In this document: piece by piece, positions 10,555 to 32,309 of the stretch
Position numbering within the stretch: position 1 is the first letter of the stretch
How the letters are laid out: each line of letters starts with the position of its first letter
Sequence record: SRR22947727_230
Direction: 5' to 3' (one strand)
DNA: 53,816 nt
The notes under the pieces: model-generated
What the model saw: the letters and a program-made list of their open reading frames with translations, nothing else
What the model was told of the DNA's origin: nothing
Databases searched by the model: none
Made by a program: the position numbers and the translations under genes

Positions 10555-11620
10555 TTAATTTTTTAACTAAATTTTGAAAATTAATATTATTTAATTCATT
10601 ATAACATACATTTTTTAAAGTTTTATCTTGTTTCATTCTAGTAACAACATTTTTTATATTGATCTTTTTATTATTAACCTGCAATTTTTTTTTATTCTTT
10701 ATTTCTAAATCTTTAATCCAATTACTAAGTTTGATATTTTTCCATTTTTCAATTTTAGAAATATCTTTTATTATGAAGGGTTTATTAAATTCAAGTGCTA
10801 GATTTGTTAGATAGAGGTTCAGCAGACCGTGGGGTAAATTATAATATTTTGATACAGCAACTGATAAAGTATGCATTATAGAAGTTCTTGATTTTGTAAT
10901 ACATACACCTCCTATTAAAGCTAATAACATGTAATCTTTATATTTTTTTGATTCTATTTTCTTATCTAATAAACTTATTCCCAATCTAACTCCTTGAAAA
11001 GCCAACTTTTTAATTTTTAAATTTTGACTTTTATTAAGATAAACTTCTAAACAATGTGAAAAAGCATCATATAGAGAAGCAAAAATAATTTTTTTATTAA
11101 TATATCTTAGTAAATCCGGATAAATATAAGTATTTTTAGGAATCAATTTTTGATCAGATATTGTAAATTTTCTTTTTGTTTCTGAATTTATAATTACAGA
11201 ATATGGAGAAATATCACTGCCACTACCACATGTCGTAGGTATACAGTTTATTGGAATTGAATGATTTATTTTATTATTAAATTCATAGTACTGAATTTTA
11301 TTTTTAGGGTTTGTGATTGATAGAGCTTTTGCAAAATCAATAGTACTTCCGCCTCCGATTACAAGTAGTATATCAGCTTTAAGCATTTTTTTATAATAAG
11401 AGTTAACCATTTTTGATGTAGGTTCTCCACTTGGTTTAATAATAATTTGTAAAATTTGTTTATTAAATTTAATTTTTATTAATCGAAAAATATTTCTATT
11501 TAAATTCTTAGGAATTATTAAAATAATTTTTTCTTTAATTTTTATATTAGTAAGAAAATTTTTAGAAATATGAACATTGGTTTTAATTTGATATTTCTTA
11601 TTCATGATTATTTGTACCAA
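10529..11620 (-). CDS. Iron-containing (group III) alcohol dehydrogenase
   Basis: GEPT, IGGGSTIDFAK, IPTTCGSGSD, DAFSHCLE, HTLS, PHG metal/NAD motifs; alternative ATG at 11605. Confidence 0.9.
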   Translation of the reverse strand: MVQIIMNKKYQIKTNVHISKNFLTNIKIKEKIILIIPKNLNRNIFRLIKIKFNKQILQIIIKPSGEPTSKMVNSYYKKMLKADILLVIGGGSTIDFAKALSITNPKNKIQYYEFNNKINHSIPINCIPTTCGSGSDISPYSVIINSETKRKFTISDQKLIPKNTYIYPDLLRYINKKIIFASLYDAFSHCLEVYLNKSQNLKIKKLAFQGVRLGISLLDKKIESKKYKDYMLLALIGGVCITKSRTSIMHTLSVAVSKYYNLPHGLLNLYLTNLALEFNKPFIIKDISKIEKWKNIKLSNWIKDLEIKNKKKLQVNNKKINIKNVVTRMKQDKTLKNVCYNELNNINFQNLVKKLNEKNKNFF

Positions 11621-15779: not shown

Positions 15780-16271
15780 TTAACTATTTGCTAATTTTTT
15801 TAAGTTTATTAAATTTAATTTTAAAATACTCTCAATAATTCCTGAGAAGACAAAAGTAGAGATTAAACTATAAGTAAAAAAGGGGATTGCCAATGTGTAG
15901 CAAAGTAAAAGACCTTGAAAAGTGTAGGTATAAGATCCCAAGGTCCATATTCCAAAGTTTGTTATTATAAAAAACAAACCAGCTCCTATTAATGATCCAA
16001 AAATTCTATTTAAAATAGTTGTAGCAAAAAACCTAGATCCAAGTCCAATTAAAATTATACTACCCCAAGTAAAGGGGGTAATGCCATGAAGGCCAATAAT
16101 TAAGTCAGTTATTATAAAACTTATGACTAAGGCTGGCAAATATCTAATTCCCAGTAATGTGGGTACATAAAAACTCAAGGCCATTAAACTAGTAAAATTT
16201 GGTGGATGAGGAATAAAACGACTAGCTGCCAAAACAAGAAAAATGCCTATGCTTACTTTTAGATAATTCAC
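15780..16271 (-). CDS. DUF6580-type small membrane transporter (ECF S-component/BtuM-like), probable cobalamin inner-membrane importer
   Basis: RFIPHPPNFT, FFIITNFGIW, GLLLCYTLAIPFF; hydrophobic 163 aa; directly downstream of btuB; GTG start. Confidence 0.75.
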   Translation of the reverse strand: MNYLKVSIGIFLVLAASRFIPHPPNFTSLMALSFYVPTLLGIRYLPALVISFIITDLIIGLHGITPFTWGSIILIGLGSRFFATTILNRIFGSLIGAGLFFIITNFGIWTLGSYTYTFQGLLLCYTLAIPFFTYSLISTFVFSGIIESILKLNLINLKKLANS

Positions 16272-16331
16272 TAAAAAATTATATTGAATTTAAAAAAATA
16301 AGCAAGTGCAAAGGCAATTTTATTTTTATAT

Positions 16332-18293
16332 TTAGTATGTTTTTTTAAAACCAAAATTATAACTTCTATCCATCTGTGAATACTGAACAGCAGTTTCATA
16401 TTTTTTGTCTAAAACATTTGTTATATCAAAATAAAAATTATAATTATTTAGGTAGTTATATCTAAATGATAAATCATTAACCAAATAACTATCCAGTGTT
16501 TCATTTTCAAATCCTGGAGATTTATCACTAGTTGCGTTTCCATTTCCATAGTCTCTTGCTTTGTCAGACCACTTGGTTTTTAAACTGATATCTAAATCAT
16601 TATAAGCAGGAATTTTTACATTTGTAATTAAGTTAACTAAATTCCTAGGAACTCTTACCATTTGAGAACCTGAATCTGACCCAGAAGGGTTATCTTCATC
16701 TGCACCATCATAACTTGATGTATATGTATAATTTAGATCAAAATTAAACATTTCATTTAATTTAAATTTAGATATTAATTCTATACCTTGTGATTTAACA
16801 TTTGCTATTGTGTTTTGGGTAGTTGAAGTGCCACCACCTGCTGTATTAGTTTCCCAGCCTTCAAGGGCATCAAAGTATTTAACATTAAAGTAAGTAAGAT
16901 CTATTAATAAATTTGGACTTATAGATTTTTCAATCCCAAGGTCAAAACTTTGACTTGTTTCTGCTTTTACAAAAGGTAATGCACTGGCGCCCGACCTCCA
17001 CACATATTTCATTTCATATAATGAAGGAAATCTATACCCTGTACCATATGAAGATTTTAACCTTGTAGACTTATCATCAAATACATAAGCAAGGGTTGCT
17101 CTATGAGAATCTTCATTTGAACCTCCACCTGCAAGTGAATGTTCGTCAAATCTTGCACCAAAAGTACCATAAATATTATTTGTTAATCTGCTTTGAAAAT
17201 CAAAATATTGAGATGTGATATAAGCATTAGAATCTATCCTTCCTGTGGCATTACTATTTAGTCCCATCTGGTCATCTTCTCTCTCTAATCCAAATACAAT
17301 GCTATTATCTAAATTAAAATTATAATTACCTTGGTAAAGATAGGCATATCTTTCACCATAATAATTATCTTGTTGTGTATTATTACTATTTGGCGTTCGA
17401 GCATAAATCCTTTCTATATATGTGTTTGCAATAGTAAGTCTATTTGTAAGCTTCTCTGTTGATTTATAAATTAGACTAACATTTATTGATGACTCTATAG
17501 CATCAACTTCCTCGCTATGGTCACAAGTTGAACAACCAAAACTACCCTCTATCTGTGGATGATCATATTGCAAGTATGTTTCTGCGACTCTCACATTGCT
17601 TTCTAATTTCAATGTATCAGAAAATTTATTCCCAAAACTAGCTATTAACCCATTATTTCTATATCTATCTTTTTCATCATTATGAGTCATTTGTGAAATT
17701 CCATCTGTATGAAACCTTTGAAGACCGAAAAAATAATTCATATTTTCATCTCCACCTGAAACAGAAGTGGCTAAATTATGTGTATCATGAGAGCCGGTTG
17801 TATAACTTGTATTTTTTTTAAAACCAGGTTCTCCTTTTTTAGTAGTAACGTGTATAGTTCCACCGATAGCTCCACTTCCATAAACTGAACTTTGATTGCC
17901 TTTTAAAATTTCTACTCTAGATACTTGACTGGTTAAAATATTGTTAAAATCAAAATCATTAGAGACACTTGATGGATCTGACATTTTAACACCATCAATA
18001 TAAACAGTAGTATATCTTTTAGGCATGCCTCTCAATTGAATTGCTGATGATGTCCCGTGACCACCACTTTGATAAAAATTAGCACCAGCTGTAGATGTAC
18101 TTAAGGCATCTCCTAAAAAATATTCAGTAGAATTATTAAAAAATTTTTCATCTAATGTAGTTACCGATGTACCTACTGTCGATAAAGACTGAGGTTTTTT
18201 GCTCGCTGAGATTACAATTATAGGAATTTCTTTTGAAAACACTAAATTTGTAATTAAAATAAAATAAACAAGTATAAATATTCTTACCATCAT
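16332..18293 (-). CDS. btuB: TonB-dependent receptor, BtuB-like cobalamin transporter
   Basis: Signal peptide, TonB-box-like IIVISAS, plug motifs (LRG..VYIDGV, RVEILKGNQSSVYGSGAIGGTI), FGARFD, SYGTGYRFPSLYE, NVLDKKYE, terminal aromatic residue; downstream of a cobalamin riboswitch. Start may be 18302, 18293 or 18290. Confidence 0.85.
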   Translation of the reverse strand: MMVRIFILVYFILITNLVFSKEIPIIVISASKKPQSLSTVGTSVTTLDEKFFNNSTEYFLGDALSTSTAGANFYQSGGHGTSSAIQLRGMPKRYTTVYIDGVKMSDPSSVSNDFDFNNILTSQVSRVEILKGNQSSVYGSGAIGGTIHVTTKKGEPGFKKNTSYTTGSHDTHNLATSVSGGDENMNYFFGLQRFHTDGISQMTHNDEKDRYRNNGLIASFGNKFSDTLKLESNVRVAETYLQYDHPQIEGSFGCSTCDHSEEVDAIESSINVSLIYKSTEKLTNRLTIANTYIERIYARTPNSNNTQQDNYYGERYAYLYQGNYNFNLDNSIVFGLEREDDQMGLNSNATGRIDSNAYITSQYFDFQSRLTNNIYGTFGARFDEHSLAGGGSNEDSHRATLAYVFDDKSTRLKSSYGTGYRFPSLYEMKYVWRSGASALPFVKAETSQSFDLGIEKSISPNLLIDLTYFNVKYFDALEGWETNTAGGGTSTTQNTIANVKSQGIELISKFKLNEMFNFDLNYTYTSSYDGADEDNPSGSDSGSQMVRVPRNLVNLITNVKIPAYNDLDISLKTKWSDKARDYGNGNATSDKSPGFENETLDSYLVNDLSFRYNYLNNYNFYFDITNVLDKKYETAVQYSQMDRSYNFGFKKTY

Positions 18294-18369
18294 TTGACAC
18301 ATCCATTGTTAAGATTCATACAAAAATATAAATCTTATTAATTAATGCCGATGTTAATTAAAAATTGTA

Positions 18370-18486
18370 GAACTAGACTTTTCCTGGCCCTCGTTCAACA
18401 GCGGACTGCATTGGATGGCACTCGGTCTTTATACCGTTGCAGGAACAGATAATGAGTTTCACATTATTCCCCATCAAGATTCAATG
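18370..18486 (-). ncRNA. Cobalamin riboswitch (compact class II / AdoCbl-variant-like)
   Basis: Minus strand reads CATTGAATCTTGATGGGGAATAATGTGAAACTCATTATCTGTTCCTGCAACGGTATAAAGACCGAGTGCCATCCAATG...GAACGAGGGCCAGGAAAAGTCTAGTTC. It shows GGGAA, a GTGAAA T-loop hairpin (ATAATG/CATTAT), GCAACGG, GCCA, outer CATTG/CAATG and ATGG/CCAT pairings, and TTCCTG/CAGGAA kissing-loop complementarity. Confidence 0.85.
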
Positions 18487-18492
18487 TGAGTT

Positions 18493-18521
18493 TATTTAAT
18501 ATTATGGAGTATATTTGTCAA
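18493..18521 (-). promoter_or_regulatory. Putative sigma70 promoter of the riboswitch-btuB transcript
   Basis: TTGACA (18521-18516), 17-nt spacer, TAAATA (18498-18493); this places the start site near 18487, immediately before riboswitch P1. Confidence 0.55.
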
Positions 18522-18564
18522 ATCTTTAATATTTTAAAATATCCCTTTATTATATAAAAAATTT

Positions 18565-18685
18565 AATTTTTTTTGAAAATCTGAAGGTCAAAAATACTCT
18601 TTTAAACGAATGGCCATAATCTTGGGTCTTTCAACTTAGATTTTGAGTCAAATATAGATAATTTTTTTAGATATGAATTAGAAAG
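18565..18685 (-). repeat. Diverged direct repeat copy 2: functional AKR 3' end plus a decayed pseG 5' stub
   Basis: + strand aattttttttga------aaatctgaagg...tggccataatcttgggtctttcaacttagattttga aligns with aattttttttgacacctcaaatctaaaag...tggccataatcttggttcttttagtttagaatttga at 15617. The stub reads MA.../LTFRF--SKKI versus PseG MA...IAFRFEVSKKI. Confidence 0.8.
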
Positions 18686-19480
18686 TTTTTTTTTTTTAAG
18701 TTTTATTATTTCATTTAATTGTTCAAAATTATCTATACCCAAAACAATACTATCTATTTGCATATTTGAAGTTACAAACTTTAGGGCTAATTGCTTAAGA
18801 TCTTTTAGATCTAAGTTTAATTTAGATAAATTTTTCTTAATTTCTTTTTCAAGTGGCTCCATTTGCTTTGGTAAAAAAGAAATTTTTTCAGTTAGAACTC
18901 CCTTTAAAAATGTTGATCGTGTAAAAATTTTAATTCTTTTCTTTTTTGCTAAGCTAAAAACTTTTGTGTTCATTTCTTGATTTATAAGATTATAAGGAAC
19001 TTGAATACTTTCTATCCACCCCGAATTTATACAGGCTAAAGCTTCACTTTGAGTATAAACAGTAGCTCCAATCATTTTTATTAATTCTTTTTTTTTTAAG
19101 TTTAAAAAAAAATTTTTAAGTTCAGAATTTTTAAAAATATTTTTATCTGCATTATGAATTTGAATGAAATCTAATTTTTTTTTATTTAAATTTTTTCTAC
19201 TTTTATTTATTGATTCTAGTATTTTCTTTAGATCAATTTTTTTTGATTGAATATAAATTTTTGTTGCAATTAAACAATTATATTTTTTTAATGCTTCTCC
19301 AAGTATTTTTTCAGCATTTCCATAATCTGGAGATGTATCAAATGATTTTATACCACTTTTGAATGCTCTTCTAATTATTTTAATAGCTATTTTTTTTGAT
19401 ACCTTATTTTTTTGTTTTTTTCTTAACCCATAGTCTTGCCCAAAATTAACTGTGCCTAGTGTTATTTTTGAAATTTTCAC
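18602..19480 (-). CDS. Aldo/keto reductase
   Basis: LGTVNFGQDYG, FDTSPDYGNAE.ILG, ATK, QIHN, IQVPYNL, RSTFLKG, DPRLW; GTG start. Confidence 0.9.
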   Translation of the reverse strand: MKISKITLGTVNFGQDYGLRKKQKNKVSKKIAIKIIRRAFKSGIKSFDTSPDYGNAEKILGEALKKYNCLIATKIYIQSKKIDLKKILESINKSRKNLNKKKLDFIQIHNADKNIFKNSELKNFFLNLKKKELIKMIGATVYTQSEALACINSGWIESIQVPYNLINQEMNTKVFSLAKKKRIKIFTRSTFLKGVLTEKISFLPKQMEPLEKEIKKNLSKLNLDLKDLKQLALKFVTSNMQIDSIVLGIDNFEQLNEIIKLKKKKLSNSYLKKLSIFDSKSKLKDPRLWPFV

Positions 19481-19489
19481 TTTTTTATT

Positions 19490-20794
19490 TTATTCTTTTG
19501 TTATTCTTGAAAAAGATTTAATGGCAATAGATTTGTAGCTTAATTCATTATATTTTTTTTTTGATAGTTTGTAAAAAATTTTGTCTGCACATTTTTTGTA
19601 AATAAGTAAATGTTTTTCTTTATGAGAATAGGATGGTCTAAATTGCCTAAAAGCAAGAATGTTAAATCTTAGCATTTCTCTTGTGAAATATGTCTGCATT
19701 TTTTGATTGTCATTATTTTTAAAAGAAAAACTAGGCAGAGTATCTATTCCAGATATTTCAATTTCAATGCTATGTTTTTTTGCAAGTTTTTTCCAAATTG
19801 TCTTCATGGTCTTGCCCATCTTAATGTTGTGATTAAAAATTTTTTTATTAATACATTTTTTAATGGTAGCTATTGCAGCAGCTGGGCCAACTCTTTCAGT
19901 CCAATTTGTACTTGAAATAAAAGTTTTATTTGCAGCATTCATAACATTATTTTTACCAATTATTGCTGACATGGCATAACCATTAGACATGGATTTTGCA
20001 AATACTGCAATATCTGGATTAATATTATGAAGCAAATGTATTCCGCCCACATTCATTCTAAATCCAGATGTTATTTCATCAAATATTACAATTGCTCCAA
20101 TTTTTTGTGCGACTTTTTTTAATTCTTTTAAATATCTTTCTTTTACAGTATTGCCTCTAGCAGGCTCAATGACTATTGCAGCTATTTTTTTTTCTTTATT
20201 TTTGATTTTTTTTTTCAAATTATTGATATTTGAGTCATCAAAAGGTATAGCTGAATTTATCAAACTTTTAGGAACACCAGCAGGATCAAGACCAGATAGT
20301 AAAAATTTATTTAAATTTTTCTTAGATTGTATATTTGAGGACAGATACCAATCGTTCCATCCGTGATAACCACTAAATAATATTTTATCTCTCCCTGTAT
20401 AAGTTCTTGCAATTCTTATTGCTATCGACATTGCTTCTCCACCACCCCTAGCAAATCTTACTTTTTTTGCCCATGGGTGAAGTTTAAGTAAAAGGTTTGC
20501 TAGCTCAAATTCTTCAACAGGATTAATTGAAGACGAAACCCCATTCGAAATTACTTTTTTTACTGCTCCATCAATATCTTTATCTGCATATCCGAGTATA
20601 GAAGCTCCAACATTCATAATACTCATATCAAGATATTTATTATTATCTAAATCCCAAATATAAACTCCTTTTGCTTTAGAAAAATATCCAGGCCAAAGTC
20701 CAGGTGCAAATAGATCAGGTTTTTTTGAAAATAACTGTGTTCCACCAGGAATAATTCTTTTTGCCAAATTGTAAATTTTTTTAGTTTTTTTCAT
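19490..20794 (-). CDS. Class III PLP aminotransferase (GSA-aminomutase/KdnA-like)
   Basis: IPGGTQLFSK, FARGGGEAM, FSGYHGW.DW, FDEITSGFR, PDIAVFAKSMSNG, ISSTNW. ATG at 20794 preferred. Confidence 0.9.
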   Translation of the reverse strand: MKKTKKIYNLAKRIIPGGTQLFSKKPDLFAPGLWPGYFSKAKGVYIWDLDNNKYLDMSIMNVGASILGYADKDIDGAVKKVISNGVSSSINPVEEFELANLLLKLHPWAKKVRFARGGGEAMSIAIRIARTYTGRDKILFSGYHGWNDWYLSSNIQSKKNLNKFLLSGLDPAGVPKSLINSAIPFDDSNINNLKKKIKNKEKKIAAIVIEPARGNTVKERYLKELKKVAQKIGAIVIFDEITSGFRMNVGGIHLLHNINPDIAVFAKSMSNGYAMSAIIGKNNVMNAANKTFISSTNWTERVGPAAAIATIKKCINKKIFNHNIKMGKTMKTIWKKLAKKHSIEIEISGIDTLPSFSFKNNDNQKMQTYFTREMLRFNILAFRQFRPSYSHKEKHLLIYKKCADKIFYKLSKKKYNELSYKSIAIKSFSRITKE

Positions 20795-20798
20795 TAGT

Positions 20799-21548
20799 TT
20801 AATATTTTTCTTTACCAATATATTTTTTGTTTAAATTTAGAAGATTTGGGTTAGATTTAAAAAACCTATTTATATCTTTTAAGTAAAAATTTTTTTTTCC
20901 AATTTTTCTATAAATTGTTCTAATTAGCTTTAAGTCATCTAAATTATCTAGCGTTATTCTTAAATGAGAATAATCTTTTTTTGGCACAAGAGTTCCAATA
21001 TTAAATTTTTTCTTATTTTTCCAAAGAAATGGAGTTACGTGCTCTCTATCAAAATTTAATTTTGCTTTGTGGAATGCTTTATCAAGAGCTGAGAAGCTGA
21101 AACATTCTGCATCTAATCCATCTGGATACTTGTTACACCTAATTTTTGATACACCAGCACCAGTAGCTACACCAACATGATCAAAGTTTCCTTTAGCGTA
21201 TAATTTTATGAGTTTATTTATTATTTTGTAATCAATTAAAGGACAGTCTGCAGTTATCCTAACAATAATTTGAGCTTTAAATTTTATTGCAGTATTATAA
21301 AATCTTTTAAGAACATCTTTTTCATCCCCACAAAAAAAACTAATCTTCTTTCTTTTACAAAGATTAATTATTTTTTTATCTTTTAAATTAGTTGTTGTTG
21401 CCACAATAATAGGAAGGTTAAGTTTTTTTAATCTATAAATTATATGCTCAAGTACAGTAATATTATTTATTTTTTTTAAGACTTTGTTTGGAAGTCTTTT
21501 AGAATTTAATCTTGCTTGTACTATGATAACTATTTTTTTTTTTCCCAT
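20799..21548 (-). CDS. spsF: SpsF-like cytidylyltransferase (CMP-nonulosonate synthetase family)
   Basis: QARLNSKRLPNKVL, GDEKDVLKRF, RITADCPLID, PDGLDAE, REHVTPF, RITLD..DD. Confidence 0.85.
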   Translation of the reverse strand: MGKKKIVIIVQARLNSKRLPNKVLKKINNITVLEHIIYRLKKLNLPIIVATTTNLKDKKIINLCKRKKISFFCGDEKDVLKRFYNTAIKFKAQIIVRITADCPLIDYKIINKLIKLYAKGNFDHVGVATGAGVSKIRCNKYPDGLDAECFSFSALDKAFHKAKLNFDREHVTPFLWKNKKKFNIGTLVPKKDYSHLRITLDNLDDLKLIRTIYRKIGKKNFYLKDINRFFKSNPNLLNLNKKYIGKEKY

Positions 21549-22399
21549 TTCTTTCTAATTTTTTTCATTGGTCTTAAACCGTCTTTAGGGTCGGCTCTCC
21601 AATCTCGATCTGATAGTTCAGATTTTGAAGGTTTTTTAATACTATTTCCATCAGAACTAATTGCTTGATTTACATTTAGAATTAATCTTGAAGCTTCTTT
21701 TGGTAGCCAGCAATGCCCAGCTTTAAATTCAAAACCTTTTCCATCTAAGTCATAGTGTAATTCAATATCTTTAACTCCCCATCGATGAATAGCCCTATTT
21801 ATTACTTGTTCGTTAACAGTATGATCTGACCAACCAATATTTTTATGAATACTTTTAAGAGTTTTAATTATTGATAAATTAGCATCTTCTAATTTTGCAG
21901 GGTATGAGGAAACACAATGCATAATTGTTAAATTTTTAAGTTTAGTTGATTTAATTAAATTAAAAGCATCATTGACTTCTTTTAGTGTAGCCATTCCCGT
22001 TGAAATTATAAGGGGTTTTCTTGTTAAAGCACATTTGCGAATAAGTTTTTTGTGTAAAATTTCATAAGAAGAAATTTTAAAAAAATCTACATAATCTTTA
22101 AGCTCATCAACAGCTTCAAGATAAAAAGGTGTACATCCAAACTTAATATTAATTTTCTTACAATGAGCATGTATTTTTTTTATAAACGAAATTGGCAATT
22201 CCCATTTTTTTCTATTTTGATGAATTTTTGATTTCTCTAAAATGTCTTTTGAAAATAATTTTTCAATTTTAAAAAGTTGAAATTTAACAGAACTAAAGCC
22301 TGATTTTTTTGCACTATTAATAAGTGATATAGATCTTTTTATTGACCCATTATGGTTGCTTGAAATTTCAGCGATAAAATTAATTTTTTTTTTTCCCAT
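21530..22399 (-). CDS. NeuB/SpsE-family nonulosonate synthase, short form
   Basis: FIAEISSNHNG, VKFQ, FKISSYE, ISTGMAT, MHCVSSYPA, GWSDHT, IELH; 289 aa. Confidence 0.9.
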   Translation of the reverse strand: MGKKKINFIAEISSNHNGSIKRSISLINSAKKSGFSSVKFQLFKIEKLFSKDILEKSKIHQNRKKWELPISFIKKIHAHCKKINIKFGCTPFYLEAVDELKDYVDFFKISSYEILHKKLIRKCALTRKPLIISTGMATLKEVNDAFNLIKSTKLKNLTIMHCVSSYPAKLEDANLSIIKTLKSIHKNIGWSDHTVNEQVINRAIHRWGVKDIELHYDLDGKGFEFKAGHCWLPKEASRLILNVNQAISSDGNSIKKPSKSELSDRDWRADPKDGLRPMKKIRKKWEKKK

Positions 22400-23543
22400 T
22401 ATTATTTATATAATTTTTTACAATTTTAATAACTCTATTAACTTCAGTTTTTTTTAGGTTTGGGTATATTGGAATTGAAATTGATTCATTGTAATAATTC
22501 TCTGCTTCAATTAATCTAAAGTTTTTAAATAACTTTTTATAAAATGGATGTTTGTAAATAGGAATATAATGAACATTAACAAAATAATTTTTTTTTCTAA
22601 GATATGAAAAAAGTGATTTTCGAATATCTTTATTAACTCTTATTATAAATAGATGATAAGAAGAATAATTTTCTTCAGGTATTTTTTGAATTTTTATTTC
22701 TGTATTCTTAAAACTAGAAATATATTTTTTTGCAATTGAGTTTCTTTTTTTGGTAAAAGAATTTACTTTTTCAAGTTGAGACCTTCCTAAAGCCGCTGAA
22801 ATCTCGTTCATTCTATAATTAAAACCAATGCATACTTGCTCATAAAACCACAATCCCTTTCTAGCAATTTTTTTTCTTGGTAAATTTTTATTTATTCCTG
22901 ATGATTGCATGTAAGTTAGTTTCTGAAATATTTTCTTATTATTAGATAGAACTGCACCACCTTCTCCAGTGGTAATAATTTTTACAGGATGAAAACTAAA
23001 AACAGTTAAGTCACTGTATTTACAACTGCCAACTTTATAATTACCATGATAAGAACCAAGAGCATGAGAAGCATCCTCTATGATTTTAAATTTATATTTT
23101 TTTGAAAGTTGAAAAATTTTTTTCATATCACAGCTTAATCCACCGAGATGAACAGGAATTAAAATTTTAGGTAATTTTTTATTTTTTTTTGCTTTTATCA
23201 ATTTTTCCTCTAACTTAATAACATCCATATTGAAAGTTGAGTTGTTGATATCTACAAAGTCAATTTTGGCACCACAATATATGCCACAATTAGCTGACGC
23301 CACAAATGATATTGGTGATGTCCATAAGTAGTCTCCTTTTTTTAAGCCTAAAGCTAAACACGCTATGTGTAAACCAGCTGTTGCACTGTTTAATGCAATT
23401 GCAAATTTTGCATTGCAAAATTTTGCTAGTTTTTTTTCAAATTCTTTTACAATAGGACCTTGAGTTATAAGGTCTGATCTTAAGACTTTAACGGCTGACT
23501 TTATATCTTTGTTATCTATTAATTGCTTGCTATAAGGTATCAT
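22380..23543 (-). CDS. pseC: UDP-4-amino-4,6-dideoxy-N-acetyl-beta-L-altrosamine transaminase
   Basis: MIPYSKQ.I...DI, ITQGP, NSATAGLHIAC, SPISFVASANC, EDASHALG, FSFHPVKIITTGEGG, GFNYRM. Confidence 0.92.
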   Translation of the reverse strand: MIPYSKQLIDNKDIKSAVKVLRSDLITQGPIVKEFEKKLAKFCNAKFAIALNSATAGLHIACLALGLKKGDYLWTSPISFVASANCGIYCGAKIDFVDINNSTFNMDVIKLEEKLIKAKKNKKLPKILIPVHLGGLSCDMKKIFQLSKKYKFKIIEDASHALGSYHGNYKVGSCKYSDLTVFSFHPVKIITTGEGGAVLSNNKKIFQKLTYMQSSGINKNLPRKKIARKGLWFYEQVCIGFNYRMNEISAALGRSQLEKVNSFTKKRNSIAKKYISSFKNTEIKIQKIPEENYSSYHLFIIRVNKDIRKSLFSYLRKKNYFVNVHYIPIYKHPFYKKLFKNFRLIEAENYYNESISIPIYPNLKKTEVNRVIKIVKNYINNNGKKKN

Positions 23544-23651
23544 TTTGTAGGGTATATATTAATTTTGCAAGGTATATGTTTATAAGTATTTTGCAAATAA
23601 GACAAGATTACATTAATAAAAGATAATTTTTAAAATACAAATTCTTAAGCA

Positions 23652-25190: not shown

Positions 25191-25696
25191 TGAAAAGTTT
25201 TAACATTATGACAAAAAGATTTTGTGTTAGAAAACTTAAATTATTTGATGTTAATCTAAATTATTTGCAGTGGTTTAAAGAAAAAGAAATACAAAATTTT
25301 ATTGGCAAGACTAACTATAAAAATATTTCAGAATTAAAAAATTATTTTAAAATTGAAAATAAAAAAAAAGATACTATTTTCTTAGGAATTTTTACAAAGC
25401 AAAATAATCAACATATTGGAAATATAAAATTTTATAATTTGCATAAAGTTAAAAATAGTTGTGAGCTGGGAATAATGATTGGAAATAAGAATTGGAGAAA
25501 TAAATCTGTTGCTTATGAAACACTGGTAAGTTGTCTTAAAAATTTAAAAAAAAATTTTTTAATAAAGAAAATTTATTTAGGAGTAGAAAAAAAAAATCAT
25601 TCAGCTGTGAAATTATATAAAAAAATAGGCTTTAATATAACAAAAATTAGAATAAAGAATCACAGGCATATAATGGATATGGAGAAAATTTTATAA
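25190..25696 (+). CDS. GNAT N-acetyltransferase (RimJ/PseH-like)
   Basis: HIGNIK, ELGIMIG.K.W, LGV...N..A.KLY.K.GF. Confidence 0.85.
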   Translation: MKSFNIMTKRFCVRKLKLFDVNLNYLQWFKEKEIQNFIGKTNYKNISELKNYFKIENKKKDTIFLGIFTKQNNQHIGNIKFYNLHKVKNSCELGIMIGNKNWRNKSVAYETLVSCLKNLKKNFLIKKIYLGVEKKNHSAVKLYKKIGFNITKIRIKNHRHIMDMEKIL

Positions 25697-25705
25697 TTAA
25701 TTACT

Positions 25706-27487
25706 ATGATTAAATTATTAAATACTCTGAATTATTTTTTAATTTCAAAGGAGAAAAAACAATTAGTGGTTCTATTTATTGCTGGTTTATTTTTCGTGAT
25801 ATTAGAGACTGTTGGATTGAGCGCAATAGGAGTATATGCAGCAATAATAATAAACCCTGACATGGTTAGTTCTAAAATTAATTTTATGAATGTAGATGAT
25901 TTGATAAATCAAGTATCTTACAAAAGTTTCGTAATTATAATATCAATCTCTCTAGTTTTAATATTTTTTTTAAAGAATATATATCTTATTTTTTATACTT
26001 ATTTTGAAACTCAAGTCACAAAAAAAATTTTAGCTAGAAACTCTCTTAAACTTTATGATATTTATTTAAGTAAAAATTATCTTTTTCACATAAAAAATAA
26101 TCCTCAAACATTAGTTAATAATATTAATTCAACCTTAAAAATGTCAATTAATTTTGTATTTTATTTTTTAAAACTAACAAGAGAAATATTATTTGTAGCT
26201 ATTTTGATAATAGGATTGTTTATAATAAACTGGAAATATTCAATAATAGTATTTTCAGTTCTAACTTTTTTTTCATTAATTTTATCAATTTTTTTGAGGA
26301 AGAGATTAAGTGTTTATGGTGAAAATATTATTGATAGCGGCAAAAATATTTTAAGAAACTTGAATGAGGGTATAAGAAGTATAAAATTTTCAAAGTTATT
26401 AAAAAACTTTTCTTACTTGATTGAAAATTATAACAAAAGCTTATTACAAAGAGAAAATTATCAGCAAAAATATAGTATATTGACTAAGTTACCCAAATTT
26501 TTTCTTGAGGTGTCATCAATATTAATTCTAGTTATGACTACTATTTTTCTTATTGATTATACTGAGGATAAAACACAGTTAGCTACAATGTTAGCTTTAA
26601 TAAGTTTAATTTTTATAAGATTAATCCCTTCCTTCATAAATTTGAACAATGTCATAAATGATCTGAAATTCTGCAAACCAGCATATGATGTTATTTTAGA
26701 GGAATATATTGAAGATTTTAAAAAGAGTAAATTGAATGAAATCAAAAAAAAAAGTCTAATTAATAATGAAAATTTTTTTCCTATTAAGTTAAAAAAAATA
26801 AATTTTCAATATTTGGAAGAAGATGATAATCCAAAAAAACTAATCCTAGAAAATTTATCCTTAGAGATTGAGAAACAAAAAATGATTGGTATCGCTGGTA
26901 AATCTGGTGCAGGCAAAACTACTTTAGTAGATATTATTGTTGGATTTTTAAAACCATTATCAGGCAATATTATACTTAATAATATAGAAACAAATTTATA
27001 TAATAATTCAGAATGGCAAAATTTAATTGGCTATGTTCCCCAAGAAACAATCTTAAATAATACGACTATTTTAGAAAATGTTGCCTTTGGTATTGATAAG
27101 AAGAATATTGATAGAGATTTAGTTATAGAATGTTTAAAAAAATCTCAATTAATTGATTTTATTAATTCATTGCCAAATAAACTTGATACAGTAATTGAAG
27201 ATCTAGGAAAAAATATTTCAGGAGGTCAAAAACAACGATTTGGTTTAGCTAGAGCTCTTTATAGAAAGCCAAAACTTTTAATTTTAGACGAACCGACCAG
27301 CTCGTTGGATCATTTTAATGAACAAAAAATTCTTGAAGATTTATTACAATTAAAAGATAAATTATCAATAATTATAATAGCCCATAAATATACTTCAATT
27401 AAATATTGTGATAAGGTATTTTATTTAAAAAATGGTCAATTAGTAAATTCAGGAAGTCCTAATACGATTAAAAATTTATTTGATTAA
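25706..27487 (+). CDS. ABC transporter permease/ATPase fusion (PglK/MsbA-like glycan flippase)
   Basis: N-terminal transmembrane domain; GKSGAGKTT, GYVPQ, ISGGQKQR, LILDEPTS, IIAH. Confidence 0.92.
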   Translation: MIKLLNTLNYFLISKEKKQLVVLFIAGLFFVILETVGLSAIGVYAAIIINPDMVSSKINFMNVDDLINQVSYKSFVIIISISLVLIFFLKNIYLIFYTYFETQVTKKILARNSLKLYDIYLSKNYLFHIKNNPQTLVNNINSTLKMSINFVFYFLKLTREILFVAILIIGLFIINWKYSIIVFSVLTFFSLILSIFLRKRLSVYGENIIDSGKNILRNLNEGIRSIKFSKLLKNFSYLIENYNKSLLQRENYQQKYSILTKLPKFFLEVSSILILVMTTIFLIDYTEDKTQLATMLALISLIFIRLIPSFINLNNVINDLKFCKPAYDVILEEYIEDFKKSKLNEIKKKSLINNENFFPIKLKKINFQYLEEDDNPKKLILENLSLEIEKQKMIGIAGKSGAGKTTLVDIIVGFLKPLSGNIILNNIETNLYNNSEWQNLIGYVPQETILNNTTILENVAFGIDKKNIDRDLVIECLKKSQLIDFINSLPNKLDTVIEDLGKNISGGQKQRFGLARALYRKPKLLILDEPTSSLDHFNEQKILEDLLQLKDKLSIIIIAHKYTSIKYCDKVFYLKNGQLVNSGSPNTIKNLFD

Positions 27488-27489
27488 TT

Positions 27490-27579
27490 ATGAATGATAC
27501 AATAAGTAAAATAAATTATTTAGATTACACCTTTAGAGACGGTAGATATTACAACAATTGGAATTTTAATAAAAACTAA
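27490..27579 (+). pseudogene. Decayed 5' stub of an aldolase homolog
   Basis: MNDTISKINYLDYTFRDGRYYNNWNFNKN* versus MSKLKILDCTLRDGGYYNNWNF of the next gene (15/21 aa identical). Confidence 0.85.
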
Positions 27580-27634
27580 TGAACAATGGAAAGCAAGAGA
27601 GTTTACATAAAAAACTTAGATGGTTTTATAAAAA

Positions 27635-29248
27635 ATGAGTAAACTAAAAATATTAGATTGTACACTTCGTGATGGCGGTTACTACAATAATTGGAATTTT
27701 AGTATTGGATTAATTAATAGATATCTAAAAGTAATGTCAGACATTAAAGTTGACTATGTTGAGATAGGCTTCAGATCTAAAGATAAAAAAGAATTTAGGG
27801 GAGCTTGTGCATATACGACTGATGATTTCTTAAGTAGTTTAAAAATACCCAAATCATTGAAAATTGCTGTAATGATTAATGGGGCAGAACTGATTAAAGA
27901 AAATAATTTAAAAAGAAATATATTATCTCTTAATAGTTTATTTAGAAAATCAAAATTTAGCAAAGTTAAATTAGTTAGAATAGCTTGTCATTTTTCAGAA
28001 CTTAATGAGGTTATGCCTGTAGCATTTAAAATTAAAACCTTAGGATATAAAGTGGCCATTAACTTAATGCAAATTTCAGATAGATCAGAAAAAGAAATTC
28101 AACATTTTTGCAATCTTGCAAAAGAATTTAAAATGGATGTTATATACTTTGCAGATAGTACAGGAAGTCTAAATAGAGATCAAACTCAAGAAATAGTCAA
28201 AAATTTTAAAAAAAATTGGAAAACTGACCTAGGTATACATGCTCATGATAATATGGATAAGGCAATGGAAAATGCAATGATGGCACTAAGTAATGGTGTA
28301 AATTGGATTGACTCTACAGTATTGGGTATGGGCAGAGGTCCAGGCAATGTAAAAACAGAAAATCTAATTCTTGAGCTAGAAAAAAGATTTAAAAGAAAAG
28401 TTAATTATAATGGCTTAATTAAATTGGTAGAAAACGATTTTATTCTTATGAAAAATAAATATGGGTGGGGATCAAACGTATATTATTACCTTTCAGGTTT
28501 ATATGGAATTCATCCAAGTTTTATTCAAGGGATGCTTACTGCAAAAAATTTTAGTTCAGATGAAATTTTAGCAGTTATAGATAATTTAAAAACTGAAGGA
28601 GGGAAGAAATTTAGTAATGATCTTATTAACACCTATAAACAATATTTTGTTGGTAAAGGCAGTGGAAAATATGAACCAACAAAAAATATAAAAAACAAAA
28701 ATGTTTTGATACTTGGTTCAGGCCCAGGTGTCAAAGCTCACAAAGTAGCATTAGAGAATTTTATAAAAAAATATAAACCGTTTGTTATTGCTTTAAATAC
28801 TCAAAATTCAATCAATTCTAAATTAATTAATACCAGGGCTGTCTGTAATACATTAAGACTATTAACTGATCACAAGTCATTTAAATATCTGCCACAAAAA
28901 CTTATTTTACCTTATCAAAGGTTATCAGATCTTATTAAAGATAAATTTAAAAAAGTTAAAAAATTAGATTTTGGAGTAGAGGTAAGAAATAATACTTTTC
29001 AATTTATGAAGTCTTCAGCAATAATTCCTAATACATTGGCAATTTCATATGCTCTAGGAATTGCTAATAGTGGAAAAGCAAAAAAAATTTATATAGCAGG
29101 ATTTGATGGTTATGAAGCTGAAGATCCTAAAAGACGAGAAATGGATGAATTATTTTCTTTATATCAATCATTGAAAAAAAAATCAGAATTAGAAAGTATA
29201 ACTCCTACAAAGTATAAGGTTAAATCTGTATCTGTTTATGCTTTGTAA
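27635..29248 (+). CDS. DRE-TIM (HMGL-like) pyruvate-dependent aldolase with extra C-terminal domain
   Basis: LDCTLRDGGY, YVEIG, YFADSTG, GIHAHDN, GMGRGPGN..TE; C-terminal LILGSGPG...IYIAGFDGY. Confidence 0.85.
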   Translation: MSKLKILDCTLRDGGYYNNWNFSIGLINRYLKVMSDIKVDYVEIGFRSKDKKEFRGACAYTTDDFLSSLKIPKSLKIAVMINGAELIKENNLKRNILSLNSLFRKSKFSKVKLVRIACHFSELNEVMPVAFKIKTLGYKVAINLMQISDRSEKEIQHFCNLAKEFKMDVIYFADSTGSLNRDQTQEIVKNFKKNWKTDLGIHAHDNMDKAMENAMMALSNGVNWIDSTVLGMGRGPGNVKTENLILELEKRFKRKVNYNGLIKLVENDFILMKNKYGWGSNVYYYLSGLYGIHPSFIQGMLTAKNFSSDEILAVIDNLKTEGGKKFSNDLINTYKQYFVGKGSGKYEPTKNIKNKNVLILGSGPGVKAHKVALENFIKKYKPFVIALNTQNSINSKLINTRAVCNTLRLLTDHKSFKYLPQKLILPYQRLSDLIKDKFKKVKKLDFGVEVRNNTFQFMKSSAIIPNTLAISYALGIANSGKAKKIYIAGFDGYEAEDPKRREMDELFSLYQSLKKKSELESITPTKYKVKSVSVYAL

Positions 29249-29260
29249 ATACTTATTTAA

Positions 29261-29986
29261 ATGGAATATTATTTAGTCATCCCAGCAAGATATAATTCAA
29301 AAAGACTCCCAGGCAAGCCGCTTATGGATATTTGTGGTATTCCAATGATTATTAGAACTTATAATCAATGTAAAAAAATTGTAGATAAATCTAAAATACT
29401 AATTGCAACAGATGATAAGAGGATCCAAAAAGTCTGTGAAAAAGAAAAGATTAAAGTTGTAATGACATCTAAGAAGTGCCTCACTGGTACTGATAGAATA
29501 GCTGAAGTAGCAAAGAGATTTAAAGCTGATTTTTATTTAAATGTACAAGGAGATGAGCCAATTTGTAATCCTGTAGATATAAAAAAATTGTTAATTACAG
29601 CTAAAAAATATCCAAAAACTATAATAAATGGATATACCGCAATCAAAGATAAAGAATTATTTTTTTCAGGGCATATTCCTAAAGTAGTTTTTAGAAAAGA
29701 TGGAAGACTTTTATATCAATCGAGAGCAGCAATACCAACAACCAAAGATAAGAAATTTATAAAAGCATGGAGGCAAGTATGTATATACTCATTGCCATAC
29801 AAATCTTTAGTTGCCTTCAAATCAGTTAAAACAAAAACTCCGCTAGAACAGCTTGAGGATTGTGAATTACTAAGGTTTCTTGAACTCGGCCATGAAATTA
29901 AAATGATTAAAATGTCTGATAAATCTGTTGCTGTAGATACTAAAAAAAATTTAAAGGATGTTATAAATATAATAAAAAATTGTTAG
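29261..29986 (+). CDS. kdsB: KdsB-like CMP-ulosonate (CMP-Kdo) synthetase
   Basis: IPARYNSKRLPGKPL, ATDD, TGTDRIAE, NVQGDEP, LEQLEDCELLRFLE.G, VDT. Confidence 0.85.
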   Translation: MEYYLVIPARYNSKRLPGKPLMDICGIPMIIRTYNQCKKIVDKSKILIATDDKRIQKVCEKEKIKVVMTSKKCLTGTDRIAEVAKRFKADFYLNVQGDEPICNPVDIKKLLITAKKYPKTIINGYTAIKDKELFFSGHIPKVVFRKDGRLLYQSRAAIPTTKDKKFIKAWRQVCIYSLPYKSLVAFKSVKTKTPLEQLEDCELLRFLELGHEIKMIKMSDKSVAVDTKKNLKDVINIIKNC

Positions 29987-30685
29987 ATGTTAAATAATAA
30001 TATTTTGGTTCTTGGGTCTAAACCTGAGTCAAAACTTCCAGATATCCATGTAGACAAAATCTATACAGCTAATGGTGCAGCTGAAAGAGCCATTGAATTC
30101 AGGAAAAAACATAAAAAAAATAAACTTACATGTGTTGTTGGTGCACGTGAGTTTGCTAGAAATGATTATGTTAGTTCAAGAGTTATAAAATCTAAACCAG
30201 AAAGAATAATGATTGTACCTGGAGCAATAGATTTACCTTTAGAATTAAGAGATTATACAAAATTAACTTGTTTATCAGATAAAGAACAGTGGAATTTTCA
30301 AGCAAAATTTTTTAAGAATAAAAAAATTGCACTGCTGATAGCTGAAATGCAACATCAAGTAAGCTTATATTCTAAAATTATTCATATTTTAAAGCATATC
30401 AAAAACAGAAACATTCAAGGTATATCAAGAGGGTTTTATTCAATTCTTCTTGCATTAGAGGAAAATCCTAATTCAAATATAATTATTTCTGGAATAGGCA
30501 TGAAGGGAGGAAAGCAATTTTATGATTCTAAAAGAAGTCAATTATTTGTTTATGACTCGAGAGCTAGAGTCGACAGGTACCTTATCAAAAGATTGTTACA
30601 AAATTATAAGAATAGACTTTATAGTCTTGATTCTGACTTAATTGATGTCTCCAATATCAAGAAATGGAATGGAAATTCTTTTTAA
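29987..30685 (+). CDS. Hypothetical protein, weakly sialyltransferase (GT29/GT42)-like
   Basis: ILVLGSKP, IYTANG, ISRGFYSILLAL, IIISGIGM pattern recalls CMP-sugar-binding GT-A variants; follows kdsB with no gap. Confidence 0.45.
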   Translation: MLNNNILVLGSKPESKLPDIHVDKIYTANGAAERAIEFRKKHKKNKLTCVVGAREFARNDYVSSRVIKSKPERIMIVPGAIDLPLELRDYTKLTCLSDKEQWNFQAKFFKNKKIALLIAEMQHQVSLYSKIIHILKHIKNRNIQGISRGFYSILLALEENPNSNIIISGIGMKGGKQFYDSKRSQLFVYDSRARVDRYLIKRLLQNYKNRLYSLDSDLIDVSNIKKWNGNSF

Positions 30686-30725
30686 TTTGAATTTACATCT
30701 AATATAGATTAAAAATCATCCAAAT

Positions 30726-32309
30726 ATGCTTAAGTCACCTTTTATAGCCAGAAATCCAAAGGATTTTAAAATATTAATATTTTATCCTAATTTACACATG
30801 AGTGCTCTTATGCCTCAATCTGTAGGAATTTTCACAGCTTTATTAAAACAAGAAGGTTATCCACTAGATCTTTTTGATTGTACTTATTATGAAGATATTG
30901 ATTCTTTAACACTTGGAAAAAATACTAATGAAGAAAAAGTTGAAAATAGGAATGTCCATAAGTATAATAACACCGAGTGGCATGAAAAAGGTGTGAAGCC
31001 TAAAAATGGTATCGTTGATGCCTTTAAAAAAAAAGTATCAACCTTCAAACCAGATTTAATTCTAGTTTCTGTTCTTGAAAGTACATATTATCTGGCAATA
31101 GATCTACTTAAAGCAATTCCAGAAAAAGATCGAACTTATAAAACTTTTTTTGGAGGTGTATTTGCAACCTATGCAGCAAATAAAATTATTCAAAATGATT
31201 TTGTTGATTATGTTTGTAGAGGCGAGGGTGAGGGGGCGGTTGTAGAGATGGCCAATGCACTAAGCTCAGGTGGTAGGATTGATCAGATTAAAAATTGCAC
31301 TGTAAAAGGTGAGGGAAAAATTTTTAAAAATAACATGCGACCCCCTATAGATATCGATACCGTACCAATACCTGATTGGGATTTGTTTGAGGCTGGAAGT
31401 TTATATAGACCTATGCAAGGTAAGATATGGAGAGCAGTCGGGTTAGAAACTCAAAGAGGATGCCCTTATACTTGCACATTTTGTAATTCACCATCAAATA
31501 ATGTTGAATACAAAGCTGAAACTGGTGGAAAATTCCATAGAAAAAAAAGTATAAAAAGATTAAAAAAAGAATTAGATTTTTTAGTTAAAAAATACGACCC
31601 TAATTTAATTTATTTTGTTGTCGATACTTTTTTGGCCATGTCAAATAGAGAATTTGACGAATTAAAAGAACTTTATTCAGATTATAAAATCCCTTTTTGG
31701 ATGAATACAAGAGCAGAAACTATAAACGAGTATAGAGCCGCGGGTTTAGCAGAGATGAATATGTTAAGAATGAATATTGGAATTGAACACGGAAATTATG
31801 AATATAGAAGAAATTATCTCAAACGGAATGTAAAAGATGAAGTTCAGATTAGAGCATTCGAAATCGCTGCAGAACATGATTATGCATCTTGTGCAAATAG
31901 TATTATTGGAATGCCTGATGAAACTAGGGATTTAATATTCGATACAATAAACTTTGTTAGAAAACTTCCAGATAGTATTGATGCAACAGGAGCTTTTATA
32001 TTTGCACCTTATCACGGCACACCGTTAAGAGATCTTGCTATTAGAAAGGGCTATATAAAAGATGAAGAAATATGTTCTTTATCTAATACGAGTGAAAGCA
32101 TGTTGAGAATGCCAACAATAACAAAAAATGAAATTCAAGGATTAGCTAAAACATTTAGCTTATATACAAAATTTCCAAGGGAAAGATGGCCAGAAATAAA
32201 GATTGCCGAAAGTGATGATGCAGAAGGCCAGAAAATGATGGATAAATTGGGAAAAGAATTTGATAGTACATATAGACAGTTTGCTGCAGGGACAGATCTA
32301 CACGATTAA
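30726..32309 (+). CDS. Cobalamin-binding radical SAM protein (class B methyltransferase-like)
   Basis: N-terminal B12-binding-type domain (KPDLILVS, GGVFAT, VCRGEGE); TQRGCPYTCTFC (CxxxCxxC); GIEHG, IIGMPDET, PYHGTPL. Confidence 0.9.
   Translation: MLKSPFIARNPKDFKILIFYPNLHMSALMPQSVGIFTALLKQEGYPLDLFDCTYYEDIDSLTLGKNTNEEKVENRNVHKYNNTEWHEKGVKPKNGIVDAFKKKVSTFKPDLILVSVLESTYYLAIDLLKAIPEKDRTYKTFFGGVFATYAANKIIQNDFVDYVCRGEGEGAVVEMANALSSGGRIDQIKNCTVKGEGKIFKNNMRPPIDIDTVPIPDWDLFEAGSLYRPMQGKIWRAVGLETQRGCPYTCTFCNSPSNNVEYKAETGGKFHRKKSIKRLKKELDFLVKKYDPNLIYFVVDTFLAMSNREFDELKELYSDYKIPFWMNTRAETINEYRAAGLAEMNMLRMNIGIEHGNYEYRRNYLKRNVKDEVQIRAFEIAAEHDYASCANSIIGMPDETRDLIFDTINFVRKLPDSIDATGAFIFAPYHGTPLRDLAIRKGYIKDEEICSLSNTSESMLRMPTITKNEIQGLAKTFSLYTKFPRERWPEIKIAESDDAEGQKMMDKLGKEFDSTYRQFAAGTDLHD

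Follow-up and report, generated by a model that had tools for sequence, protein, structure and literature searches.

A putative riboswitch-controlled vitamin B12 uptake unit and its linkage to B12-binding radical SAM enzymes in glycan islands of SAR11 bacteria

A stretch of DNA of 53,816 nucleotides from sequence record SRR22947727_230, the whole of which is called the window here, raises the question of why a vitamin B12 (cobalamin) uptake unit, made of a cobalamin riboswitch, a gene for a BtuB-like receptor and a gene for a DUF6580 membrane protein, lies in the middle of an island of glycan genes, and of which enzyme the imported cofactor would serve. An earlier note, made from the sequence alone, had proposed that the island supplies the cofactor of its own glycan-modifying radical S-adenosylmethionine (SAM) enzyme. 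The analysis of the window and of its relatives supports this proposal, and we assign a probability of roughly 0.7 to a functional coupling in which the island carries a self-contained B12 module feeding the B12-binding radical SAM enzymes of the same flexible region. All genome-wide counts given below come from relatives, not from the window's own genome.

The arrangement described in the earlier note was recovered with family models (Table 1). A class II cobalamin riboswitch, the sole element of the window to reach the gathering threshold of an Rfam model, precedes the genes of the BtuB-like receptor and of the DUF6580 protein amid nonulosonate-type genes, with 105 nt between the aptamer and the start codon of the receptor gene. 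A class B radical SAM enzyme, whose N-terminal B12-binding domain scored above the Pfam cut-off, is encoded about 12 kb away as the final gene of a four-gene plus-strand run, in which it follows genes for an HMGL-like protein, a KdsB-like cytidylyltransferase and a 232-aa protein. The Pfam scan of the window covered 50 of its 57 listed open reading frames (ORFs), the other seven being a cut ORF at the window end and six short ORFs overlapping with larger ones. The top NCBIfam model of the receptor was TonB-B12 TIGR01779, with 161.3 bits where the equivalog cut-off is 599.7 (NF007926 gave 97.3 against 836), and the protein is therefore called BtuB-like and not a BtuB equivalog.

Table 1 Coordinates and family evidence of the features of the B12 unit, the radical SAM cassette and the adjoining sugar genes in the window
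Feature	Position	Strand	Evidence
DUF6580 membrane protein, 163 aa	15780..16271	-	PF20221, 95 bits (cut-off 27); 60 bp after btuB
BtuB-like TonB-dependent outer-membrane receptor, 656 aa	16332..18302	-	Plug PF07715 74.4 bits; TonB_dep_Rec_b-barrel PF00593 94.9 bits
Intergenic leader containing the riboswitch, 299 bp	18303..18601	-	Promoter-like site 18577-18549, consensus match only
AdoCbl-II (class II) cobalamin riboswitch aptamer	18408..18487	-	RF01689, 77.3 bits (gathering 36.5), E 1.1e-17, model positions 1-81 of 81
Five nonulosonate-type genes: DegT aminotransferase, NeuB-family synthase, cytidylyltransferase (CTP_transf_3), class III aminotransferase, aldo-keto reductase	18602..23543	-	Pfam; directly upstream of riboswitch, same strand
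HMGL-like (pyruvate-aldolase-like) protein, 537 aa, first cassette gene	27635..29248	+	PF00682, 98 bits
KdsB-like CMP-ulosonate cytidylyltransferase	29261..29986	+	CTP_transf_3 133 bits; NF009905 266.6 (cut-off 255); NF003952 235.6 (cut-off 193)
232-aa cassette protein	29987..30685	+	No Pfam or NCBIfam match
Class B radical SAM enzyme, 527 aa	30726..32309	+	Radical_SAM PF04055 64.8 bits; B12-binding PF02310 39.9 bits (cut-off 32.1), residues 98-174

The relatives of the receptor point to the host. Among 8000 scored candidates, 1695 matched at E ≤0.001, and those with names included the 'vitamin B12 transporter' of JGI records and the 'TonB-dependent receptor [Candidatus Pelagibacter sp.]' of NCBI. 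An alignment-based profile scan of species-representative genomes with the receptor gave 78 loci, of which L001-L062, with receptor identities of 35-80%, form the family used here; the receptors of L063-L078 come from other phyla and are distant or partial, and these loci were excluded from every count. Titles with Pelagibacter, Pelagibacteraceae or Pelagibacterales stand on 61 of the 62 loci, and relatives of the radical SAM enzyme at 95% identity carry the name Candidatus Pelagibacter sp. The remaining locus, L045, is a contig of 6215 bases titled as a Flavobacteriaceae metagenome-assembled genome; its radical SAM-btuB-DUF6580 arrangement and its identities to the window are the same as those of the Pelagibacteraceae locus L046, and it probably represents a SAR11 contig that was binned wrongly. 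Judged by these protein similarities, the window host is a relative of SAR11 (Pelagibacteraceae), in agreement with the streamlined Pelagibacterales-type cell that the earlier note had considered. SAR11 is the commonest bacterium of the ocean.

The proteins of the window were compared with those of the 62 loci, and all ORFs of the loci were clustered. The three commonest families were the receptor, DUF6580 and a radical SAM cluster. The DUF6580 gene was found after btuB, always within 2 kb, in 55 of the 62 loci. An iterative profile search started from the radical SAM protein of the window led to 43 long ORFs, the window's own included, all of which matched PF04055 and 42 of which matched PF02310, and at least one B12-binding radical SAM gene was present in the flanks covered at 38 of the 62 loci. 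The gap between this gene and the btuB-DUF6580 pair did not exceed 100 bp in 14 loci; with limits of 500 bp, 2 kb and 5 kb the number of loci rises to 26, 35 and 37. In 10 loci the radical SAM gene lies on the same strand as the btuB-DUF6580 unit and inside it or no more than 176 bp after it, and in L001, L059 and L062 it sits between the two genes. At 40% identity the 43 proteins were distributed over 19 clusters, which stand in for a tree-based count of independent juxtapositions of btuB and radical SAM genes; this diversity indicates that the cofactor domain, and not one pathway, travels with the importer. Orthologues of the window enzyme itself (66-87% identity) were found 0-243 bp from btuB/DUF6580 in nine loci (L009, L013, L019, L022, L024, L026, L035, L059 and L062) and 2.1 kb from the pair in L015, so that the window, with its 12-kb gap, shows in spread-out form an arrangement that other loci have as a single block.

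The same neighbourhoods might result if btuB, whose product is a surface protein that phages might use as a receptor, and the radical SAM genes merely collected in a hypervariable glycan island while being functionally unconnected. The locus L062:1-4661 fits such an origin, its module (riboswitch 251-331, btuB, radical SAM gene, DUF6580 gene) beginning 125 nt past the 3' end of a 23S rRNA gene, where the SAR11 hypervariable region 2 lies. Epimerases and glycosyltransferases are moreover abundant at most loci, and a paper on the cultivation of bacterioplankton names receptors such as BtuB among those used by phages (PMC7440811). However, the class B radical SAM cluster was the commonest neighbour after DUF6580, with 32 of 42 members within 2 kb, whereas a generic epimerase cluster present at a similar number of loci (36) had only 15 of its 75 members within this distance. 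The 10 loci in which the radical SAM gene lies within the riboswitch-controlled unit or immediately behind it also speak against a mere island effect, as does the genome-wide co-occurrence, which persists when btuB and the radical SAM gene are on different contigs. We consider an island effect alone very unlikely.

At the level of whole genomes, btuB of the window type was found in 51 of the 401 family genomes and PF02310 above its cut-off in 104 of them. PF02310 was present in 47 of the 51 btuB genomes versus 57 of the 350 genomes that lack btuB (Fisher odds ratio 60, p 2e-27; tables compared by hand), a statistic that ignores both phylogeny and genome incompleteness, which counts against the weight it can lend to the coupling. 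The association of btuB and DUF6580 with B12-binding radical SAM genes for which the earlier note had proposed a test was thus found in the loci as well as, uncorrected for phylogeny, in the genomes. The figure of 51 is a lower bound, since five of 12 large genomes scored as negative for btuB and holding PF02310 contain a divergent Plug-domain ORF together with DUF6580; the radical SAM gene stands beside this Plug/DUF6580 pair in four of the five and about 10 kb away in G049. Genome G031, one of the four exceptions among the 51, encodes a radical SAM protein of 692 aa 0.9 kb from DUF6580, the B12 domain of which was missed by the Pfam search.

The inventory of other B12 enzymes in the relatives left few clients for the importer. 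Neither the MetH activation domain nor methylmalonyl-CoA mutase was matched in any of the 53 btuB-bearing genomes, while the named control genomes were matched with both models. QueG was found in none of the five btuB genomes with the largest contigs, where the only ribonucleotide reductase scored 204-216 bits, below the 400 that the NrdJ model requires, and had NrdB adjoining, and was therefore assigned to class I. PduO-type adenosyltransferase was likewise absent from the 53 genomes (0/53) and CobA-type adenosyltransferase from the five (0/5), which would fit a methylcobalamin rather than an adenosylcobalamin chemistry. The largest PF02310 ORF among those listed had no more than 708 aa, and a recurrent weak PF02310 match was located in an ORF of 360 aa, which in the one case checked (G001) is an IMPDH/GMP-reductase protein. 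In G001, which has two contigs (660 and 533 kb), one locus carrying the riboswitch, btuB, DUF6580 and a radical SAM gene makes up the entire detectable B12 inventory. Since none of the searched B12 enzymes is present in these cells, the imported B12 would serve the radical SAM enzymes of the islands. Several Pelagibacteraceae genomes of about 1 Mb had many matches to the B12-binding domain (nine in G064, eight in G008, seven each in G047 and G097), a large share for such small genomes.

The protein features of the radical SAM enzyme of the window are those of the B12-domain class. The cluster-binding cysteines C246, C250 and C253 of the CxxxCxxC motif were invariant in alignments of 43 and of 35 relatives. 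The predicted structure, with a predicted local distance difference test (pLDDT) score of 89.4, gave 15 top Foldseek matches in the PDB that are all B12-domain radical SAM enzymes, among them MgmA, TsrM, AprD4, OxsB, CysS and TokK (E 2e-19 to 2e-14). With MgmA (9CCB), TsrM (6WTE/6WTF), OxsB (5UL4), TokK (7KDX), CysS (9N1B) and the look-alike AprD4 (6FD2) the window enzyme has in common an N-terminal Rossmann-type B12 domain and a barrel with the CxxxCxxC motif, but the sequence identity to these solved proteins is only 13-17% and no equivalog model was reached. The known radical SAM enzymes of antibiotic, ribosomally synthesized and post-translationally modified peptide, and methanogenesis pathways also differ from the window enzyme in their genomic partners, which in the window are the aldolase-like and KdsB-like genes, btuB and DUF6580. 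That the enzyme binds and uses cobalamin is argued by the linkage of its gene to btuB, from which we infer a probable dependence on the imported cofactor.

The partners in the cassette suggest a substrate. The closest solved chain of the HMGL-like protein is a 'putative aldolase' (3dxi, 185.6 bits), followed by 4-hydroxy-2-oxovalerate aldolases, and homologues of this protein are encoded beside the radical SAM orthologue in L015, L019, L026 and L035, as are homologues of the KdsB-like protein in L015, L019, L022 and L035. A homologue of the 232-aa protein with 60% identity is found beside the radical SAM gene in L022; the sole named Atlas look-alike of this protein is a GT29 cluster at 0.89, below the 0.9 lead threshold, a weak lead towards a sialyltransferase-like glycosyltransferase. 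Together, the cassette partners suggest a 3-deoxy-ulosonic-type sugar, derived from the aldolase-like enzyme and activated with cytidine monophosphate (CMP). We give even odds to a surface glycan being the product of the radical SAM enzyme.

A number of results weigh against the coupling, and part of them would be explained if the importer served another B12 function, core or accessory, that was missed here, the nearness of the radical SAM genes being incidental. No class B radical SAM gene was present in the flanks of 24 of the 62 loci; in 13 of them less than 4 kb is covered on at least one side, and the other 11 extend over about 9-10 kb on both sides, which favours such another function. 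The search for clients left out ethanolamine ammonia-lyase, diol/glycerol dehydratase and reductive dehalogenases, and novel B12 families likewise fall outside it. A PterinBD-DUF4346 protein of 126-138 aa (69.6 bits in L029) is encoded directly before the riboswitch-btuB unit in ten loci (L016, L017, L020, L029, L034, L036, L041, L045, L046 and L054), and in five of the ten the setting is that of the core genome, with DctM, PterinBD-DUF4346, btuB, DUF6580, a 4HBT thioesterase and pyruvate dehydrogenase E1. However, the five genomes with btuB in this core context all hold class B radical SAM genes elsewhere, with one to five B12-domain ORFs each. Together with the adjacency to 19 different subfamilies, the genome-wide association and the lack of MetH, methylmalonyl-CoA mutase, QueG and NrdJ, this makes another main function of the importer quite unlikely in our view.

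Further points on the same side concern genomes in which importer and enzyme do not go together. No B12-domain protein was found in three of the 51 btuB genomes, namely G169 (a 3-kb contig), G360 and G392, which may be incomplete. Seven of the 12 large PF02310 genomes contained neither a Plug domain nor DUF6580, and the importer-less genomes share one orthologous class-B-like radical SAM family of 505-526 aa (L092, L093, L095, L097, L099, L101 and L102), six members of which are 62-86% identical to one another and one about 40%; this family either works without B12 or B12 has another way of entry into these cells. In the window itself 12.4 kb separate the start codons of btuB and of the radical SAM gene, two genes that lie on opposite strands and in separate transcription units.

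The existence of the importer-less family is also in favour of the view that the window enzyme does not use B12, being an AprD4-like dehydratase or another such protein, or that it acts not on a surface glycan but on other substrates such as lipids, phosphonates or small metabolites. A B12-binding domain alone is no proof of B12 use, since AprD4, a radical SAM enzyme with such a domain, is not known to use cobalamin. AprD4 was both the best PDB match of the window enzyme by sequence (44.7 bits) and among its top structural matches. The NCBIfam matches of the window enzyme were all below cut-off (BchE 102.8, HpnJ 90.3 and PhpK-type 71.6 bits). Moreover, two small ORFs of 162 and 167 aa at 9588-11620 (-), the first of which matches TPP_enzyme_C, stand beside an iron-dependent alcohol dehydrogenase gene and recall the split sulfopyruvate or phosphonopyruvate decarboxylases, which are thiamine diphosphate (TPP) enzymes, with their reductase in phosphonate and sulfonate pathways. 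A phosphonate reading of the cassette, in which the HMGL-like protein, the cytidylyltransferase and the B12 radical SAM enzyme would act with this decarboxylase and dehydrogenase, was set aside because phosphoenolpyruvate (PEP) mutase was matched by none of the 50 scanned ORFs; those ORFs with a family match all belong to sugar-pathway or general enzyme families. The orthologues of the window enzyme at 0-243 bp from btuB/DUF6580 in nine loci speak for B12 use, and the KdsB-subfamily cytidylyltransferase and the aldolase-like enzyme as cassette partners speak for a sugar. We judge a B12-independent or non-glycan enzyme unlikely.

The last of the opposing results concerns the energy source of the receptor. 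As the earlier note had seen, TonB, ExbB and ExbD are missing from the window, with no Pfam match among the 50 ORFs that were scanned; the TonB_C domain was in addition found in none of the 53 btuB-bearing related genomes. Each of the five large genomes examined has a single ExbB-type gene and, next to it, a single ExbD-type gene, and in one of the five a 271-aa ORF with a weak TonB_2 match lies beside the pair, which looks like a TolQRA set. The missing TonB is a puzzle about the energy source of the receptor and not a refutation of its role in import. A hydrophobic stretch, EIPIIVI, is conserved ahead of the plug in a 22-sequence consensus and may correspond to a TonB box. The setting differs from that of btuB in E. 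coli: no BtuFCD, TonB or dedicated ExbBD turned up in the SAR11 relatives, and the window btuB lies instead in a glycan island, with no MetH to feed as judged from the relatives.

The DUF6580 protein is the candidate for the inner-membrane step of the uptake. Its AlphaFold model, with a pLDDT of 91.9, was compared with 21 chains of S-components of energy-coupling factor (ECF) transporters and gave VIA Z-scores of 11.5-14.3, the next unrelated folds having Z-scores of at most 7.5. BtuM of Thiobacillus denitrificans, a solitary B12 carrier, had the best Foldseek TM-score (0.72) and Z-scores of 14.0 (8OVV, with hydroxocobalamin) and 13.4 (8C7P), over 150-154 residues at 2.6-3.0 Å; the Z-scores of biotin, thiamine and folate S-components tie with those of BtuM. 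The Foldseek E-values were all above 0.5, and the assignment of the fold therefore rests on the TM-score and the VIA Z-scores. By sequence, neither phmmer nor a 52-sequence profile matched DUF6580 to any PDB chain at E-values up to 10.

DUF6580 and BtuM share the small six-helix S-component fold, and BtuM is also described as encoded after a riboswitch-controlled btuB, the position that the DUF6580 gene has in the window. The two proteins differ in that they have no detectable sequence kinship and belong to different Pfam families, and in the residue that binds the metal. In BtuM a cysteine serves as cobalt ligand, but no cysteine was found among the invariant or near-invariant columns of the 52-sequence alignment of DUF6580, in which R18, P21, H22, P23, N25, D56, G60, F100, N105, W109, Y114, P130 and F131 are invariant. 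On the basis of the structural model, DUF6580 is most likely a solitary S-component-type B12 carrier of the inner membrane, similar to BtuM in its role but outside the BtuM family.

DUF6580 is a rare family, found above cut-off in only three genomes, G001 included, of a 301-genome sample of the phylum and in none of 14 control genomes. Within the phylum, an unrelated genome of 2.8 Mb carries at L086:5414-10422 (-) an RF00174 riboswitch followed by genes for a receptor, DUF6580, a Diphthami_syn_2-family protein, a BtuF-like binding protein and a PduO adenosyltransferase; the Diphthami_syn_2 member of this B12 salvage operon is a diphthamide-synthase-like ATP-PPase. The DUF6580 gene of G431, the second genome outside SAR11, had no B12 context. 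No paper on DUF6580 was found in the literature search, which did not extend to subscription journals.

The riboswitch is conserved in the relatives. RF01689 was present in 47 of the 53 btuB-bearing related genomes, with one copy in 46 of them and two in G199, and 47 of the 48 matches lay roughly 80-230 nt upstream of btuB on the same strand, the 48th being at a contig start. Of the six btuB genomes that have no RF01689 match, at least three have btuB cut by a contig end or less than 200 nt from it, and RF01689 was also found upstream of btuB in the seven further loci tested (7/7). As in the btuB leader of E. coli, a cobalamin-sensing RNA is placed directly upstream of a receptor made of a plug and a barrel, but the E. 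coli leader is of the classical RF00174 type and that of the window is a short class II RNA. In a 2022 field study, the question of whether B12 regulates btuB transcription in SAR11 is stated to be unanswered (PMC9296465). The conserved RF01689 matches bear on this question, as they predict a B12-sensing leader on SAR11 btuB.

The window riboswitch shares its Rfam family with the env8-type Cbl-IIa riboswitches (PDB 4FRG). Members of Cbl-IIa are described in PMC6158498 as repressors of translation acting through an L5-L13 loop-loop contact, with a preference for methylcobalamin (MeCbl) or adenosylcobalamin (AdoCbl) that differs among class IIa members. In contrast to this described control, no ribosome-binding site could be placed in a loop of the window leader. 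An AGGA-bearing hairpin is located about 75 nt ahead of the first AUG, and no terminator-like site was found between the aptamer and btuB. The fold of positions 18290-18410 is undistinctive (z -1.89), and promoter-like matches in the leader region were no commoner than in shuffled sequences. Six RNA runs contain part of the window between 15780 and 18600 (shares 0.10-0.59) and were not counted as evidence of expression.

In the functional coupling that we favour, the class II riboswitch would control a two-gene uptake unit and turn uptake down when B12 is ample. The BtuB-like receptor would provide the outer-membrane step and DUF6580 the inner-membrane step, carrying B12 alone as BtuM does. 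The imported cofactor would then serve accessory B12-binding radical SAM enzymes, in the window the enzyme encoded at 30726-32309, which would tailor, most likely by methylation, a CMP-activated ulosonic-acid-type sugar or a precursor of it and in this way may act on the cell surface.

It is possible, if doubtful, that the finding extends to a sizeable and strain-variable fraction of SAR11 that imports B12 solely for diverse glycan-diversifying radical SAM enzymes and not for growth, with a receptor that works without TonB, perhaps by means of Tol or another partner. If this holds, glycan islands would determine how much B12 the most abundant bacteria of the ocean need and possibly how susceptible they are to phages. 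SAR11 is usually stated not to require B12, as in PMC3476827. A riboswitch-controlled importer together with B12-binding radical SAM enzymes would contradict this statement, and importer genes in at least 51 and B12-binding radical SAM proteins in 104 of 401 genomes would alter the budgeting of B12 demand in the surface ocean. The results also offer a likely function for the unstudied DUF6580 family, suggest a part for cobalamin-dependent radical chemistry in the surface glycans of bacteria and raise the question of how a TonB-type receptor operates without TonB. The record of L035 is titled as an isolate, and tests of growth, glycan and phages with and without B12 look feasible there. The parts of the system are ordinary; their combination, a portable, riboswitch-controlled and TonB-less importer with radical SAM clients in SAR11 glycan islands, is undescribed in the literature searched, in which no paper linking radical SAM, cobalamin and nonulosonic acids was found either, subscription journals being outside this search.

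The remaining gene content of the window, which has a G+C content of 19-31%, agrees with a glycan island. Nearly all of the ORFs with a family match belong to glycan or sugar-nucleotide synthesis, with epimerases and dehydratases, DegT aminotransferases, two NeuB-family genes, GT1, GT2 and GT4 transferases, FkbM methyltransferases and cytidylyltransferases. Downstream of the btuB-DUF6580 pair, the minus-strand string continues with unknown and ATP-grasp-like genes, the iron-dependent alcohol dehydrogenase gene and the split TPP enzyme. Upstream of the riboswitch, the NeuB-family synthase (PF03102, 181.8 bits) with adjoining DegT and CTP_transf_3 genes makes up a nonulosonate synthase gene set, but the synthase ORF, at 21530-22399 (-), falls short of the NCBIfam equivalog cut-offs of the NeuB/PseI models (177 against 399.65 and 158.5 against 340.25 bits). 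Both NeuB-family ORFs of the window are short, with 289 aa for 21530-22399 (-) and 271 aa for 8776-9591 (+), and either the usual C-terminal domain may be missing from them or their product may be a different ulosonate.

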